A stretch of 64,000 nt of DNA, taken from assembly GCF_024502345.1 (NCBI RefSeq), contig NZ_JALDNN010000001.1. The stretch is one strand, 5' to 3'. Of this stretch, positions 12,523 through 40,456 are shown piece by piece. This DNA comes from Escherichia coli. GTDB taxonomy: Bacteria; Pseudomonadota; Gammaproteobacteria; Enterobacterales; Enterobacteriaceae. Position 1 is the first letter of the stretch. Each line of letters opens with the position of its first letter. The position numbers and the translations under genes were made by a program. The notes below the pieces were generated by a model. It made no database searches. It was given only the letters and a program-made list of their open reading frames with translations, and was not told where the DNA came from.

Positions 12523-12779
12523 TCTAAAATCCTCGGAGATGTGATCTGCCCGGCATTAAACCGCACAGATATAAAAGTGAAAAAGGGGGCCATATGCAGG
12601 CCCCCTAACCAAACGTGTACTACCTGGTCTATAAGGGCTCTCCCCCTTCATATTTCGCGCCGCAGATGCGTTATCTTCGCTCGCTCATCCCGGTCACTTA
12701 CTGATGTAAGCTCCCGGGAATTCTCGAGCTTGCCGCCTTTCTGCAACTCGAACTATTTTGGGGGAGTTATCAAGCCTTA

Positions 12780-35223: not shown

Positions 35224-37758
35224 TTAATTACTACCAAACATATCCTTGATCCAACCGGCTACACCGTCTCTGTCTTTCTGCTCTTGCTGAGCAGGTTGCT
35301 GTTGCGGCTGTTGCTGCGGCTGAGAAGACTGATCAAACGGATTGCCTGACGGCTGCTGCTGCATCTCACTCTGCTGGCACAGCGATTGCGGATCGCTGGT
35401 CCAGACCGGCAAGACACGCATGCCACCGCTGCAAACAAAGTTGCCGTCGTAGTCCACGCCCATATCTGCAATATCTTCTGGCGGAACAAGATTCAGCGGC
35501 GTTGGCGTCTGGTTAGCCAGATAACGCTGATAAATCGACATTGCCCCGCTGGCTCCATACAGTTTGGTCGGCTGGTTGTTATCACGGCCTACCCAGGTGA
35601 TGGTCACCGTGCTGCCGTCAATGCCTGCAAACCAGGTATCTACGTTATTGTTGGTAGTCCCTGTTTTCCCTGCCAGATGCAGGTTCGGGTATTTCGCCCC
35701 AAGCTGACGACCCGTACCACGTTGTACCACCTGCTGCATGGTCCATAGTGTCAGATACGCCGCCTGCGCCGGAACAGCGCGTTCTGCCTGCGGGAAGCTC
35801 TGATACAGCACCTTGCCATCTTCCGCGATTACCGAACGCAGTGCAGAAAGCGGTGCACGGTTACCACCGCTGGCGATGGTCTGGAACGCCTGCGCCACTT
35901 CGATTGGCGTTAAGTTCAACGCCCCCAGCAGCATCGCCGGAACCGGATGCAGCTGATCTTTCGGTACGCCCAGTTTGATCCAGGTATCCGTAACTGCAGG
36001 CAGCCCCAGCGCCATCCCCAGATTTACCGTCGGCACGTTCATCGAACGGGTCAACGCATCCACCAGCATCACTCTGCCGCTTTCGCTATAACGACGGTCA
36101 TCGTTCTGCGGTGACCAGACCTGGCCATTCGGCTGACGCAGCGCGATTGGCGCATCGGCAATCCACGTGTTCAGGCGATAGATTTTCGGCTGGCTTAAAG
36201 CCGTCAGATAAGTCGCTGGTTTTGCAAGGGAACCAATCGAACGACGCGCCTGCATCGCACGGTTGTAGCCCGCAAACTGCGGCTCAGAACCTCCGACCAT
36301 CGCACGAACTTCACCACTAAAGCGGTCGACGACCACAATCGCAGTTTCAAGATCGCTCAACTTACGCTGTTTCTTCAGTGCCGGAATGCCTTCCACGGCG
36401 GCTTTTTCTGCCGCGTCCTGGGCCACCGAGTCAAAGGTAGTGAAGATCTTCACGCCGGAGAGATCTTTTACCTTATCGCCCAGTTTTGCCTGCAGCTCCT
36501 GACGCACCAGTTGCATAAAGGCTGGCTGAGGAGAGATCACCCCACCGCGCGGCTGAACCCCCAGCGGACGGGCACTCAACATGTCATAGAGTTCTTGATC
36601 AATAATCTGTTGCTGTTGCAGCAGACGCAGCACCAGATTACGTCGCTCCAGCGCCAGTTTTGGGTTACGCCACGGGTTGTAGATGGACGCCCCTTTCACC
36701 ATACCGACTAACAGCGCCTGCTGGTCGAGGCTTAGCTCTTCTACCGGGCGACCAAAGTAATACAAGCTTGCCAGCGGGAAGCCGCGGATTTCGTTGTCGC
36801 CGCTCTGACCGAGATACACCTCGTTCATATACAGCTCAAGAATACGGTCTTTGCTGTAACGCGCGTCCATGATCAGCGCCATGTAAGCTTCGTTCGCTTT
36901 ACGCCAGTAAGAACGCTCGCTGGAGAGGAACAGGTTTTTCACCAGCTGTTGCGTCAGCGTACTCGCACCCTGTACCGTGCGACCTGCGGTCAGGTTTGCC
37001 AGCACCGCACGTCCGATGGAGTAGAGGCTGATGCCGTCATGCTCGTAAAAATGACGGTCTTCTGTCGCCAGCAAAGTATCCACCAGCAAATCCGGGAAAC
37101 CACTGCGCGGCACAAACAGACGCTGCTCACCGTTTGGCGAAGAGATCATGGTGATCAGACGCGGATCAAGACGGAAAAAGCCGAACTGACGGTTGTTCTC
37201 CATATTGACGATCGTCGCCAGATGATCACCATCAAAGGTCAGACGCGCACGCACCTGCCCTTCTTTACTGTCCGGGAAATCAAACGGACGGCGGATCATC
37301 TCAATGCTGTTGGCCTGCACGGTAAATTCGCCAGGACGGGTCATTTTCGACACCTGGCGATACTGGGTCGCCTCCAGCAGCTTCACCATCTCGTTCTTGC
37401 TGATGGTCATGTCTGGCTCAAGGTTGACCATTCGGCCATAAACTGCCGCAGGCAGTTGCCAGACCTTGCCATCAATACGGCTACGAATTTTTTGATCGAG
37501 ATAAACGCCGTAAATGGCGATCAGCACGGCAAAAACGATAGCCAGTTTTAACAGCAGCCATAGCCAGCCGCGTTTGCCACGAGGCTTACGCCCTTTGCCT
37601 TTGCCCTTACCTTTGCGCGGCATCGGTTCTTCATCCTCATAGTCATCATAATCGTCGTAATCATCGTCATCTTCGTAACGACGACGGCTTACCTTTTGTT
37701 TGACCGGACGCGTCGGTTTCCCTTTGCGTCCAATTGGCTCGCGGTCATTCCCGGCCAT
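35224..37758 (-). CDS. mrcB: penicillin-binding protein 1B (bifunctional glycosyltransferase/transpeptidase)
   Basis: 844-aa product from the ATG at 37758..37756 ([15 protein letters not shown]…); acidic and lysine-rich cytoplasmic tail, transglycosylase then transpeptidase regions. Confidence 0.95.
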
Positions 37759-37855
37759 GCTTTTTCTCCGCAATATTCAGGCGCAAAAGCCCGATTTTCT
37801 GTTCTTCTGTTGCAAGACAGAAGAAGATATCTCTCAAAATTTGTGCTCGATCGGT

Positions 37856-37941
37856 CCCCTCTCCCTTGAGGGAGAGGGTTAGGGTGAGGGTGAACGTGCG
37901 CGCTGATGCCCTCACCCCGGCCCTCTCCCACAGGGAGAGGG
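37856..37941. repeat. GC-rich nested palindromic element in the hrpB-mrcB intergenic region
   Basis: Three consecutive GC hairpins: CCCTCTCCC-ttga-GGGAGAGGG (37857..37878), GGGTGAGGG…CCCTCACCC (37882..37917), CCCTCTCCC-aca-GGGAGAGGG (37921..37941); the outer arms can also pair with each other. Confidence 0.5.
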
Positions 37942-37953
37942 AGAAAACCAACC

Positions 37954-40383
37954 TTACGAATACTTTTTCGTCCGTCGCGTCGGTGCCGTGTTTGCCGGGT
38001 CGTCCGGCCAGACGTGTTTGGGATAACGCCCTTTCATCTCCTTTTGCACCTCACGATACGCCCCTTTCCAGAAGGCCCCCAAATCACGCGTGATTTGCAG
38101 CGGCCTTTGGGCAGGGGAAAGCAACTCCAGCACCAGCGGCACGCGCCCCTGGGCGATCGTCGGATTGGTGGCCTCACCAAACATCTCCTGCATTCTCACC
38201 GCCAGCGCGGGCGGGTTATCTTCATGATAACGAATGGCGATCCGGCTTCCCGTCGGCACAGTGTAATGCGCAGGCAATTCACTATCCAGACGTTGCTGCA
38301 TTCCCCAATCAAGTAATCCGCGTAGTGCCTGATAAATGTCGAGTGATTTCAGGCCGCGTAGTGAATGCACGCCGGTCATATGTGGCAGCAGCCACGTTTC
38401 CAGCGTCGCCAACAAACTTTCATTATCAACCGCAGGCCAGTCATATTCCGGCAACCACTTTGCGGCGCATAACAAACGCAAGCGTAGCTGTTCCGCTTCC
38501 GCCGTCCAGTTGAGCATGCTTAAACCTTTATCACGAATGCCATTAAGCATCGCCTGATGCAACTCGTCTTCCGAGGGTTTCGCCAGCGGCTGCACTTTCA
38601 CCGTCAGCAGACCGATTTGCAGCCGACGCCAGGCTTTCAGCGTACCTTGCGCGTCATCCCACTCCACAGTGTCAGACTGCTGTACCAGCTGCGGGCAGCG
38701 TTGTACTAACTCATCAATATCGACCGGCAGCGCCAGTAAAATCCGCGCATCCGGCGAGGCGCTGCCCTGCAATAATAACGGTGCGATCAACCATTCGTGG
38801 CGGCTTAGCGCGTCGTCGGCATCGAGCATCGCTCCCATGCCGTTTGCCAGTTGATAGCGTCCATTTTGCCCACGGCGATGAGCAATGCGATCGGCAAACG
38901 CCCCGGCAAGTAGCGGCGCGATAAGCGAACTGTCTGCCTCACCGCCGCGTACGTTTAAGCGTTTTAACAGTTGCTGACTACGTTGCTGCCAGGCTGGTTG
39001 ATTGCGCGAAAACGCCACGCCCAGGTCACTATTGCCCATCCGTGGCGGCTCTTCGAGAATGGCGGCAATTTTTGCCGCGGTAGCAGCTTCGTCGTCGTTC
39101 TTCGCGCTAACCAGCATTGCCGCTAAACGCGGATCGTTACCCAGCGCTGCCATTTTTTGCCCTTGCGCACTAAGCCGTTCACCCTCCAGTGCCCCCAGCA
39201 TTTGTAACAGACGTTTCGCGGCCAGTAGATTCACTACTGGCGGTTGATCCAGCCAGCTCATCTGCGCCGGATCGCTGCATCCCCATTGCAGTAATTCCAT
39301 CAGCAAACCGGAAAGATCGCTTTGTAAGATCTCCGGTTCACTTTGCGCCGCGGCGCGTTCTGCTTGTTCTTTGGCGATTAAATGCAGGCTGATACCCGGC
39401 TCCAGACGCCCGGCGCGCCCGGCACGCTGCGTCATGGATGCCTGGCTAACGCGTTGAGTAATCAGTCGCGTAAGCCCCGTGCGCGGATCAAAACGCGCCA
39501 CACGCTCCTGGGCACAATCCACCACCAGACGAATACCTTCAATGGTTAAACTGGTTTCAGCAATATTGGTCGCCAGCACCACTTTGCGCATCCCTTGCGG
39601 TGCCGGGAGGATCGCTTTTCGCTGATCGTTCAGCGACAACGCGCCATACAGCGGGCAGAGCAACACATCACTGCCGATGCGCGAAGCCAGTTGTTCCTGC
39701 ACACGCTGAATTTCTCCGACGCCAGGTAAAAATAACAGTAATGATCCGCTTTCCTGACGCAGCATTTCGGCGGTGGCTACCGCAACGGCTTCGTCAAAAC
39801 GCTGATGCGCGGGCAGCGGTAAATAATGGCGTTCAACCGGAAACGAGCGCCCTTCTGAGATGACGACGGGCGCTTCTGGCAGCATTTGCTGCAAGCGGTC
39901 GTTATCCAGCGTAGCCGACATAATCAGCAGTTTAAGGTCATCACGCAGACCTTGTTGCACATCGAGTAACAGCGCCAACGCCAAATCCGCCTGCAAGCTG
40001 CGCTCATGAAATTCATCGAGGATCACCAATCCAACACCGCTCAGTTCCGGGTCACGCTGGATCATGCGCGTCAGCACGCCTTCGGTAACCACTTCCAGGC
40101 GGGTATTCGGCCCGACGCAGTTTTGCGCACGCATCCGGTAGCCAACGGTATCGCCTGGCTTTTCGTTAAGCAGCTCCGCCAGTCGTTGCGCGACGTTACG
40201 CGCCGCCAGACGACGCGGCTCCAGCAGGATAATTTTCCCGTTAATGCCGGGATGCGCCAGCAGTTGCAGCGGCAGCCAGGTTGATTTCCCGGCCCCGGTC
40301 GGCGCACTTAATAATACCTGCGGCGCACAATCGAGAGCGGTAAGTAATTCAGGTAAGACGGCAGCAACGGGCAACGACGACAC
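37954..40383 (-). CDS. hrpB: ATP-dependent RNA helicase HrpB (DEAH-box), GTG start
   Basis: 809-aa product from a GTG (plus-strand cac at 40381..40383) giving MSSLPVAAVLPELL…; Walker A GAGKST and DEFH motif. Confidence 0.9.
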   Translation of the reverse strand: MSSLPVAAVLPELLTALDCAPQVLLSAPTGAGKSTWLPLQLLAHPGINGKIILLEPRRLAARNVAQRLAELLNEKPGDTVGYRMRAQNCVGPNTRLEVVTEGVLTRMIQRDPELSGVGLVILDEFHERSLQADLALALLLDVQQGLRDDLKLLIMSATLDNDRLQQMLPEAPVVISEGRSFPVERHYLPLPAHQRFDEAVAVATAEMLRQESGSLLLFLPGVGEIQRVQEQLASRIGSDVLLCPLYGALSLNDQRKAILPAPQGMRKVVLATNIAETSLTIEGIRLVVDCAQERVARFDPRTGLTRLITQRVSQASMTQRAGRAGRLEPGISLHLIAKEQAERAAAQSEPEILQSDLSGLLMELLQWGCSDPAQMSWLDQPPVVNLLAAKRLLQMLGALEGERLSAQGQKMAALGNDPRLAAMLVSAKNDDEAATAAKIAAILEEPPRMGNSDLGVAFSRNQPAWQQRSQQLLKRLNVRGGEADSSLIAPLLAGAFADRIAHRRGQNGRYQLANGMGAMLDADDALSRHEWLIAPLLLQGSASPDARILLALPVDIDELVQRCPQLVQQSDTVEWDDAQGTLKAWRRLQIGLLTVKVQPLAKPSEDELHQAMLNGIRDKGLSMLNWTAEAEQLRLRLLCAAKWLPEYDWPAVDNESLLATLETWLLPHMTGVHSLRGLKSLDIYQALRGLLDWGMQQRLDSELPAHYTVPTGSRIAIRYHEDNPPALAVRMQEMFGEATNPTIAQGRVPLVLELLSPAQRPLQITRDLGAFWKGAYREVQKEMKGRYPKHVWPDDPANTAPTRRTKKYS

Positions 40384-40456
40384 AAAACGCTCCAGAGGGT
40401 TAACATTCTTCGCGCCACATTGTAGCATCGCGGTAATTCATAACCGAGTGCCTCAC

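Follow-up and report, generated by a model that had tools for sequence, protein, structure and literature searches.

The genes hrpB and mrcB lie next to one another on a 64-kb stretch of Escherichia coli DNA (hereafter the window), with the coding sequence of hrpB at 37954-40428 and that of mrcB at 35224-37758, its ATG at 37758. The 195-bp spacer between them carries a GC-rich palindrome and, on its mrcB side, a smaller AT-containing hairpin. Judged by its sequence, the palindrome is an inverted pair of BoxC repeats, a family that is already known, so that nothing about the element itself is new. An earlier note on this DNA, written from the letters alone, had placed a palindromic element between the hrpB stop and the mrcB start; that placement holds, and we amend the description by the strand, since both genes run on the minus strand. 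The note also proposed a comparison with K-12, and in strain MG1655 the spacer has the same length, is annotated with no repeat, and differs by a single base in the aligned stretch, in the loop of the AT-containing hairpin.

Six 9-nt GC arms are found within 37857-37941, and they can pair either as three hairpins in series or as one more stable hairpin of ~86 nt. The first hairpin pairs CCCTCTCCC (37857-37865) with GGGAGAGGG (37870-37878), the middle hairpin pairs GGGTGAGGG (37882-37890) with CCCTCACCC (37909-37917), and the third again pairs CCCTCTCCC (37921-37929) with GGGAGAGGG (37933-37941). In each half of the element, which we call a module, a linker of 3 nt separates the 9-bp C-rich/G-rich hairpin CCCTCTCCC/GGGAGAGGG from a third G-rich segment, GGGTGAGGG, and the two modules oppose one another across 18 nt (37891-37908, TGAACGTGCGCGCTGATG on the plus strand) to give an imperfect palindrome of ~86 bp. 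In each half there is also a canonical G3N3G3N3G3N3G3 motif, together with a purine-motif triplex pattern. On the outside, the type-A module is bordered by the flank GTGCTCGATCGGTC (37843-37856, plus strand), which is also present at three other E. coli copies that we read and, in degenerate form, behind ycjD. The type-B module is bordered by GGTTGGTTTTCT (37942-37953, minus strand), and in the minimum free energy structure of the RNA the GGTTGGT of this flank pairs with ACCGATC of the opposite flank, lengthening the stem.

Folding was done with ViennaRNA, which treats hairpins only. On both strands the best fold was a single long hairpin nesting all three arm pairs. For minus-strand RNA the long hairpin reached -68.6 kcal/mol (z -7.6) and the three serial hairpins -61.0; the corresponding values were -33.6 and -30.2 kcal/mol for minus-strand DNA and -32.5 (z -5.6) and -29.7 kcal/mol for plus-strand DNA, so that the gap between the two folds is about 7.6 kcal/mol in RNA and about 3 kcal/mol in DNA. 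The earlier note had named these arms and expected stable folds, and we located every GC and AT arm where it had claimed and computed stable folds on both strands. Its proposal that the 3′ arm of the first hairpin could pair with the 5′ arm of the third is borne out by two 27-nt arms, 37864-37890 and 37909-37935, with 81% complementarity. Its mutually exclusive folds were likewise both obtained; the nested state with free outer arms that it described did not survive, being the inner part of the full hairpin.

The arrangement of the GC arms is not due to chance. On each strand of the window the 21-nt core GGGAGAGGGNNNGGGTGAGGG is found once, and 100 dinucleotide-preserving shuffles never produced it; the published family pattern, with one error allowed in each 9-mer, matched this pair only in the 64 kb and nothing in 100 mononucleotide shuffles; the folding z-scores of -7.6 and -5.6 lead to the same conclusion.

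BoxC identity and insertion history

The family has carried several names. BoxC reportedly goes back to the surveys of Bachellier and Hofnung in the 1990s, and Hoyne and Maher are said to have described PIT elements in 2000. In an earlier survey BoxC is already listed among the E. coli families, 56 bp long and with 32 copies. We identified the element by a full-text literature search with the two 9-mers, which led to Holder et al. 2015, who state that their TMECO is the element formerly named BoxC and PIT and give its pattern as 5′-CCCTCNCCC N3-6 GGGNGAGGG N3 GGGNGAGGG-3′ (PMC4666352). The hrpB-mrcB spacer is tabulated both there and in Kaplan et al. 2016 (PMC5100583). Window positions 37908-37941 on the minus strand (CCCTCTCCC-TGT-GGGAGAGGG-CCG-GGGTGAGGG-C) agree letter for letter with the first entry in Table 1 of Holder et al. 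(K-12 164547-164580, plus strand; PMC4666352), which is TMECO no. 1, type B, and corresponds to HPGQ 5 (HPG2; midpoint 164569 in Table 1 of Kaplan et al., PMC5100583). Positions 37857-37891 on the plus strand (CCCTCTCCC-TTGA-GGGAGAGGG-TTA-GGGTGAGGG-T) agree in the same way with the second entry (K-12 164631-164597, minus strand; PMC4666352), TMECO no. 2, type A, which corresponds to HPGQ 6 (HPG1; midpoint 164608, PMC5100583). Kaplan et al. label HPG1/HPG2 a "G-quadruplex-hairpin-duplex switch" (PMC5100583).

Membership in BoxC/PIT/TMECO is further indicated by the fit of both strands to the published pattern, by the multicopy and intergenic occurrence, and by the inverted pairing of a type A module (GGGAGAGGG-TTA-GGGTGAGGG on the plus strand) with a type B module (GGGAGAGGG-CCG-GGGTGAGGG on the minus strand). 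Strain MG1655 has 23 TMECO copies, and five of its loci are inverted pairs, always of type A with type B and including nos. 1 and 2; in total 3610 copies were counted in 262 proteobacterial genomes, and all published E. coli copies are intergenic (PMC4666352). The earlier note had proposed counting further copies with BLASTN, and with the 89-bp pair as query the number of places in an E. coli genome had a median of 7 and a maximum of 14; copies between gabT and gabP, between gcvP and ygfF, and beside flgN were read directly. Thus, of the note's suggestion of an unclassified small repeat family, the small repeat family stands, by pattern and copies, and "unclassified" falls away.

The note was also right that the element matches neither REP/PU nor ERIC. 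A degenerate PU consensus of the REP/BIME type (a GCCGGATGCGGCG...CGCCTTATCCGGCCTAC palindrome) had no match in the window, and an ERIC2-core probe, allowing up to 3 mismatches, matched only at 12682-12703 and nowhere in the hrpB-mrcB spacer. As an observation apart, the region around that match (12640-12740, minus strand) has an ERIC/IRU-like core, GGGAGCTTACATCAGTAAGTGACCGGGATGAGCG, that probably marks a partial ERIC element. For the hrpB-mrcB element there is no family in Rfam, which returned only generic hairpin matches far under threshold. In its E-value mode these were eukaryotic microRNA-precursor models with 15-29 bits against thresholds of 58-105, which we rejected as generic matches to a long hairpin.

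We compared the spacer across 5426 complete E. coli genomes. The full spacer with the pair is present in 3265 of them (about 60%), and 1885 (about 35%) have an "empty" allele in which 12 nt (GAAGACCAAAGC) replace 113 nt; the remainder carry other variants. Aligning filled, empty and outgroup sequences places the inserted segment at 37843-37955 (AAGGTTGGTTTTCT...GACCGATCGAGCAC on the minus strand), equivalent to K-12 164533-164645. On that strand its first two bases finish the TAA stop of hrpB; the empty allele ends in TGA and leaves the HrpB protein unchanged. In Salmonella enterica and Citrobacter freundii hrpB also ends in TGA, and because the outgroups share the stop of the empty allele, the pair is a derived insertion within E. 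coli, directly behind the hrpB reading frame. Immediately after this TGA both outgroups have a REP-like palindrome of the GCCGGATAAGGCG...CGCCATCCGGC type (locus L178 of our own numbering, 1270-1465, and L179, 960-1140), which is quite unlike the BoxC pair and precedes the conserved mrcB upstream region. Different palindromic repeat families have therefore settled behind the hrpB stop in different lineages.

Once present, the pair decays by deletions that run from one of its internal repeats to another. In O111:H8 TW05614 the interior has been lost between the direct copies of GGGAGAGGG, leaving one CCCTCTCCC/GGGAGAGGG hairpin (L128, 380-545), a type of collapse that Holder et al. describe as the "palindrome effect" (PMC4666352). 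In O145:H28 RM13516 the type-A half has a 12-bp deletion, and the IS110-family insertion sequence (IS) ISEc20 lies within TMECO no. 1, between CCGGGG and GGGCATC (L130, 3222-4672). We considered ISEc20 as a BoxC-specific IS and rejected the idea, since its other copies occupy ...GGGG|IS|GGGG... sites (with CCCGGGGG or GGGAAAGGGG on the left) that have no BoxC; its presence in TMECO no. 1 reflects a short G-rich resemblance to its target.

DUF559 genes flanked by BoxC modules

The gene ycjD is the only DUF559 gene of E. coli K-12, and it ends (...TCA CCC TCT CCC TGA) inside a module. Behind it, the ycjD-fabI spacer of K-12 holds a degenerate duplicate of the last ~40 nt of ycjD and a decayed module, followed by an intact TMECO (L135, 1560-1930, minus strand). 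It was presumably here, beside envM/fabI, that BoxC was first noticed. In Afipia the order is a hairpin, a third G segment, a DUF559 open reading frame (ORF), the complement of the third segment and a hairpin, so that the ORF is enclosed by inverted modules. The hrpB-mrcB pair follows the Afipia order except that 18 nt stand where Afipia has the ORF: the centre of the palindrome is where the ORF sits in the DUF559 cassettes, a comparison of layout for which we drew on four loci.

This neighborhood recurs among the DUF559 genes that we sampled. A profile search returned at least 7998 DUF559 relatives at E <= 1e-5. Among the best 120 homologues, 37 have module-derived peptides directly behind the DUF559 domain (for example PSPRPSP*, PLTPTLSP* and PHPNPLPxGERE), 3 also have them before the domain, and many others end in PSP or PPS. 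Seven homologues were then chosen for having no module peptide, and all 7 still have modules in their flanking DNA, no more than about 140 nt away, 5 of them on both sides. The IMG/VR contigs gave 23 good homologues, and for 22 of these C-rich/G-rich hairpins lie at 10-141 nt from the ORF; 16 loci have them both upstream and downstream, and 6 upstream only, these last having little or no downstream sequence; across 600-nt flanks there were no hairpins further out except one, 229-244 nt downstream. The sequence of the hairpin arms in IMG/VR varies with the lineage of the nuclease. Four distant, AT-rich DUF559 matches in IMG/VR had no flanking hairpins.

Enterobacterial DUF559 genes end in CCC TCA CCC CGG CCC TCT CCC TGA aagggagaggga(g/a)(c/a)aaacca, a sequence nearly the same as that of the type-B module with its flank at window 37909-37950. 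Third segment, linker and the two hairpin arms match, as does the flank for the most part; the loop and one flank base differ. The flank itself recurs as AGAAAACCA/AGCAAACCA behind the type-B module at the 3′ ends of DUF559 genes at two loci. Behind the gene end follows either a type-A module or a tandem array of about ten hairpin units. These arrays have a period of about 47-48 bp (L176, 864-1300; L144, 749-1148), and their units are BoxC-type hairpins in the former and a related hairpin repeat in the latter.

Modules of this kind extend well beyond E. coli. An exact-pattern scan of species-representative genomes found at least 120 loci, from about 14 genomes, in Alpha-, Gamma- and Deltaproteobacteria, Verrucomicrobia, Armatimonadota, Nitrospirales, Candidatus Gracilibacteria and one unclassified metagenome-assembled genome (MAG). 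The 5′ hairpin arm, which was outside the search pattern, was within one mismatch in about five-sixths of the matches, and the full published TMECO pattern was found in several of the scanned phyla. The Candidatus Gracilibacteria MAG JALNXF01, with 28% G+C, has at least 20 BoxC-type modules (L081-L097), of which about 9 of 20 lie well inside long reading frames under its own genetic code (for example L092, 2502-2633; L086, 1721-2959; L094, 2254-5274; L093, 6113-7993). Five of the host genes were assigned by sequence as LepA, MiaB-like, SufS-like, IleRS and RlmD-like, with a structure check for LepA only, in which a block of about 39 residues that contains the module pair has no counterpart in 2YWE. 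In the RlmD-like gene the module layout encloses a DUF559 (Vsr-like) endonuclease domain, so that the same genome has the layout with an ORF, in this gene, and without one, in lepA. Separately, the MAG "bacterium GL140_5" has two repeat families of ~90 nt, with about 30 copies in all, that share the BoxC core and have conserved flanks of their own and a second small hairpin, ttgcgggctccgcccgc/ttgtgggcttgcccaca.

The distribution of ycjD was also compared with BoxC copy number. The gene is present in 3377 of the 5426 E. coli genomes; published reports assign it to phylogroups A, B1 and C as well as to ST69 and ST182, with the eefRABCD operon in its place in phylogroups B2, D, E, F and G. When the per-strain TMECO counts of Holder et al. 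(PMC4666352) are grouped by phylogroup, there are 19-30 copies per strain in A/B1/C (13 in one strain), 12-15 in D, 10-11 in E, 6-7 in F and 1-2 in B2. This pattern fits a partnership with DUF559, but it is confounded by phylogeny.

We conclude, with a probability of about 0.75, that the spacer holds an inverted BoxC pair that is a derived insertion and a passenger at this site, and that YcjD-type DUF559 (Vsr-like) nuclease genes are linked with the family. A more specific proposal, which we hold at about even odds, is that BoxC/TMECO repeats are the non-autonomous partners of YcjD-family endonuclease genes, a second REP/RAYT-like system, with the hrpB-mrcB pair as an ORF-less cassette. By analogy with the relation of REP/REPIN to RAYT genes, the pair would then be a DUF559 cassette minus its ORF, and the nuclease might make, move or merely maintain the repeats. 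We know of no transposase for BoxC. If the proposal is true, the system would span Proteobacteria, Verrucomicrobia, Armatimonadota, Nitrospirales and Candidatus Gracilibacteria, in the last of which it would have inserted in frame in the essential genes lepA, ileS and miaB. It would account for the conservation of a ~36-nt sequence across phyla, for the inverted pairing and polymorphic loci, and for the highest E. coli copy numbers falling in the phylogroups that bear ycjD.

Several observations weigh against these conclusions. The link between DUF559 and BoxC is one of position and layout, and because many of the sampled DUF559 loci are closely related, the independent observations are fewer than the counts. 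Among 120 pattern-found loci of other phyla, tblastn and HMM searches found a DUF559 gene in only 2; therefore the link runs from gene to repeat and not from every repeat to a gene. That most modules are far from any DUF559 gene fits non-autonomous copies and equally an unrelated origin. In E. coli, O157 keeps the hrpB-mrcB pair though its phylogroup is reportedly without ycjD. We also sought a target-site duplication at the insertion, in filled and empty alleles and the outgroups, and found none; in terms of the classical test for a miniature inverted-repeat transposable element (MITE), filled against empty alleles have the inverted modules and no duplicated target.

It is also possible that BoxC pairs are a preferred landing or recognition site for a mobile DUF559 gene and that the repeats spread by another route. 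The DUF559 ORF occupies exactly the short centre of an empty pair, Thiotrichaceae-type loci have the ORF between two complete pairs, and modules greatly outnumber DUF559 genes, all of which would be expected of such a site. However, the last 7 codons and the stop of the DUF559 frame lie in the third segment, arm and loop of the module, and a frame that runs into the module points to a long shared history rather than to repeated fresh insertions. In addition, the tandem arrays of hairpin units that adjoin the genes suggest that repeats are produced there. We therefore consider a landing site unlikely as the explanation, although it and derivation from a cassette are not mutually exclusive.

Only the positional link to DUF559 offers a new lead here, the element itself having been known since the 1990s. 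We found no paper that connects DUF559 or YcjD with BoxC in a search of freely readable literature, and the only relative with a solved structure, 3HRL, is an uncharacterized structural-genomics protein. What BoxC/PIT/TMECO is for and how it spreads has been a standing question for thirty years, and the link makes it testable in K-12, with its one DUF559 gene (ycjD) and 23 repeats. If true, the proposal would also provide a first function for a very large uncharacterized protein family.

The mrcB promoter region and possible roles at the locus

The AT-containing hairpin pairs TTCTTCTGT (37802-37810) with ACAGAAGAA (37817-37825) on the minus strand and is not part of the repeat. The earlier note had the arms right, set the end one base too far, at 37826, and grouped the hairpin with the GC element, which does not hold: essentially every E. 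coli genome has the hairpin, those with the empty allele included, and because strains that lack the GC element retain it, we regard it as a separate feature, which belongs to the conserved mrcB promoter/leader region. Salmonella and Citrobacter retain it as well, with changes that are compatible with G.T/G.U pairing. It overlaps a predicted sigma-70 promoter of mrcB (37809-37837, minus strand; -35 TTGAGA at 37832-37837 and -10 at 37809-37814), which is listed as TTGAGA-17-TGTAAC in the genomic SELEX (systematic evolution of ligands by exponential enrichment) table of Shimada et al. 2014. Peaks of the RpoH, RpoF and RpoE holoenzymes are recorded at K-12 164658, which is about window position 37830. 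Because of the T/C difference in the hairpin loop, the predicted -10 is TGCAAC in the window and TGTAAC in K-12; it is not conserved in Salmonella, and the promoter assignment is therefore uncertain. Scans of 37650-38100 on both strands for consensus sigma-70 promoters and for hairpin-plus-T-run terminators found none, the published mrcB promoter being missed because its -10 is non-canonical. A literature search on hrpB and mrcB transcript ends returned nothing specific beyond the SELEX promoter tables.

We considered whether the element might serve as a functional 3′ structure of hrpB, either a terminator, factor-independent or factor-assisted, that insulates mrcB or a stem that protects against exonucleases as in some REP elements. 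It begins at the hrpB stop and its RNA would form the very stable hairpin described above, and the REP-like palindrome at the same position in Salmonella and Citrobacter suggests that a palindrome is tolerated, perhaps favored, here. The terminator that the earlier note had offered is contradicted, however, by the stem being followed by GACCGAUCGAGCAC with no T/U run, by the empty terminator scan, and by earlier work on PIT elements, which, in the summary that Holder et al. give of it, found neither promoter nor terminator activity and no effect on RNA polymerase (PMC4666352). Furthermore, the 1885 genomes with the empty allele have no palindrome at the site, and copies of the family take no consistent position or orientation relative to genes. 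A functional hrpB 3′ structure is thus very unlikely.

A second local explanation is that the element acts as a DNA-structure switch, moving between duplex, cruciform, intrastrand triplex and G-quadruplex, that regulates the mrcB promoter or is kept for local variability. The G3N3G3N3G3N3G3 motif and purine triplex pattern of each half would allow it, the single-stranded motif adopts both triplex and G-quadruplex in vitro by circular dichroism and nuclear magnetic resonance (PMC4666352, PMC5100583), 5 bp separate the end of the element from the predicted mrcB -35 hexamer, and TMECO loci vary between strains more than control loci do (PMC4666352). Yet double-stranded TMECO was a plain duplex in vitro, and dimethyl sulfate footprinting in vivo gave no sign of triplex protection (PMC4666352). 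Neighboring genes belong to no functional class and lie at no fixed distance from the repeats (PMC4666352), the mrcB promoter/leader is conserved with or without the element, and higher variability is equally expected of any selfish repeat that is prone to insertion and deletion. We regard such a switch as a long shot, and the other roles once suggested for the element, an mRNA-stabilizing 3′ structure or a protein-binding palindrome, are unsupported.

We suggest instead that the inserted BoxC pair is a passenger between hrpB and mrcB that would have no dedicated regulatory job. Its effects there may be incidental, such as a very stable hairpin in any RNA that reads through from hrpB, and local instability of the DNA.

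Comparison with known systems

At the level of the element, the pair is the published BoxC/PIT/TMECO and HPG1-HPG2, with the same sequence, in the same spacer, and one of the five inverted type A and type B pairs of MG1655. To what has been published we add allele frequencies in 5426 genomes, the polarity of the insertion from outgroups, the positional link to DUF559 and the occurrence of modules outside the Proteobacteria. Holder et al. found no link between TMECO and mobile genetic elements (PMC4666352).

Among other small palindromic repeats, the Rickettsia palindromic elements (RPE), ERIC/IRU and Correia resemble BoxC in being polymorphic for presence or absence, and the Gracilibacteria modules recall RPE in lying in frame within conserved genes. 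The published E. coli BoxC copies differ from RPE in being all intergenic (PMC4666352), and the hrpB-mrcB pair differs from RPE and MITE-like palindromes by its missing target-site duplication.

The nearest likeness is to REP/REPIN and their RAYT (TnpA_REP) genes. In both, short GC-rich hairpin repeats, often in inverted pairs, lie in intergenic DNA just after stop codons, an enzyme gene of low or single copy number (here DUF559) is flanked by inverted repeats, and the repeat sequence co-varies with the lineage of the enzyme. This is a likeness and not membership: BoxC lacks GTAG-type features, in keeping with the unmatched REP consensus and ERIC probe at this spacer, and where RAYT is an HUH Y1 transposase, the protein associated by position with BoxC is a Vsr-like DUF559 nuclease of the PD-(D/E)xK type.

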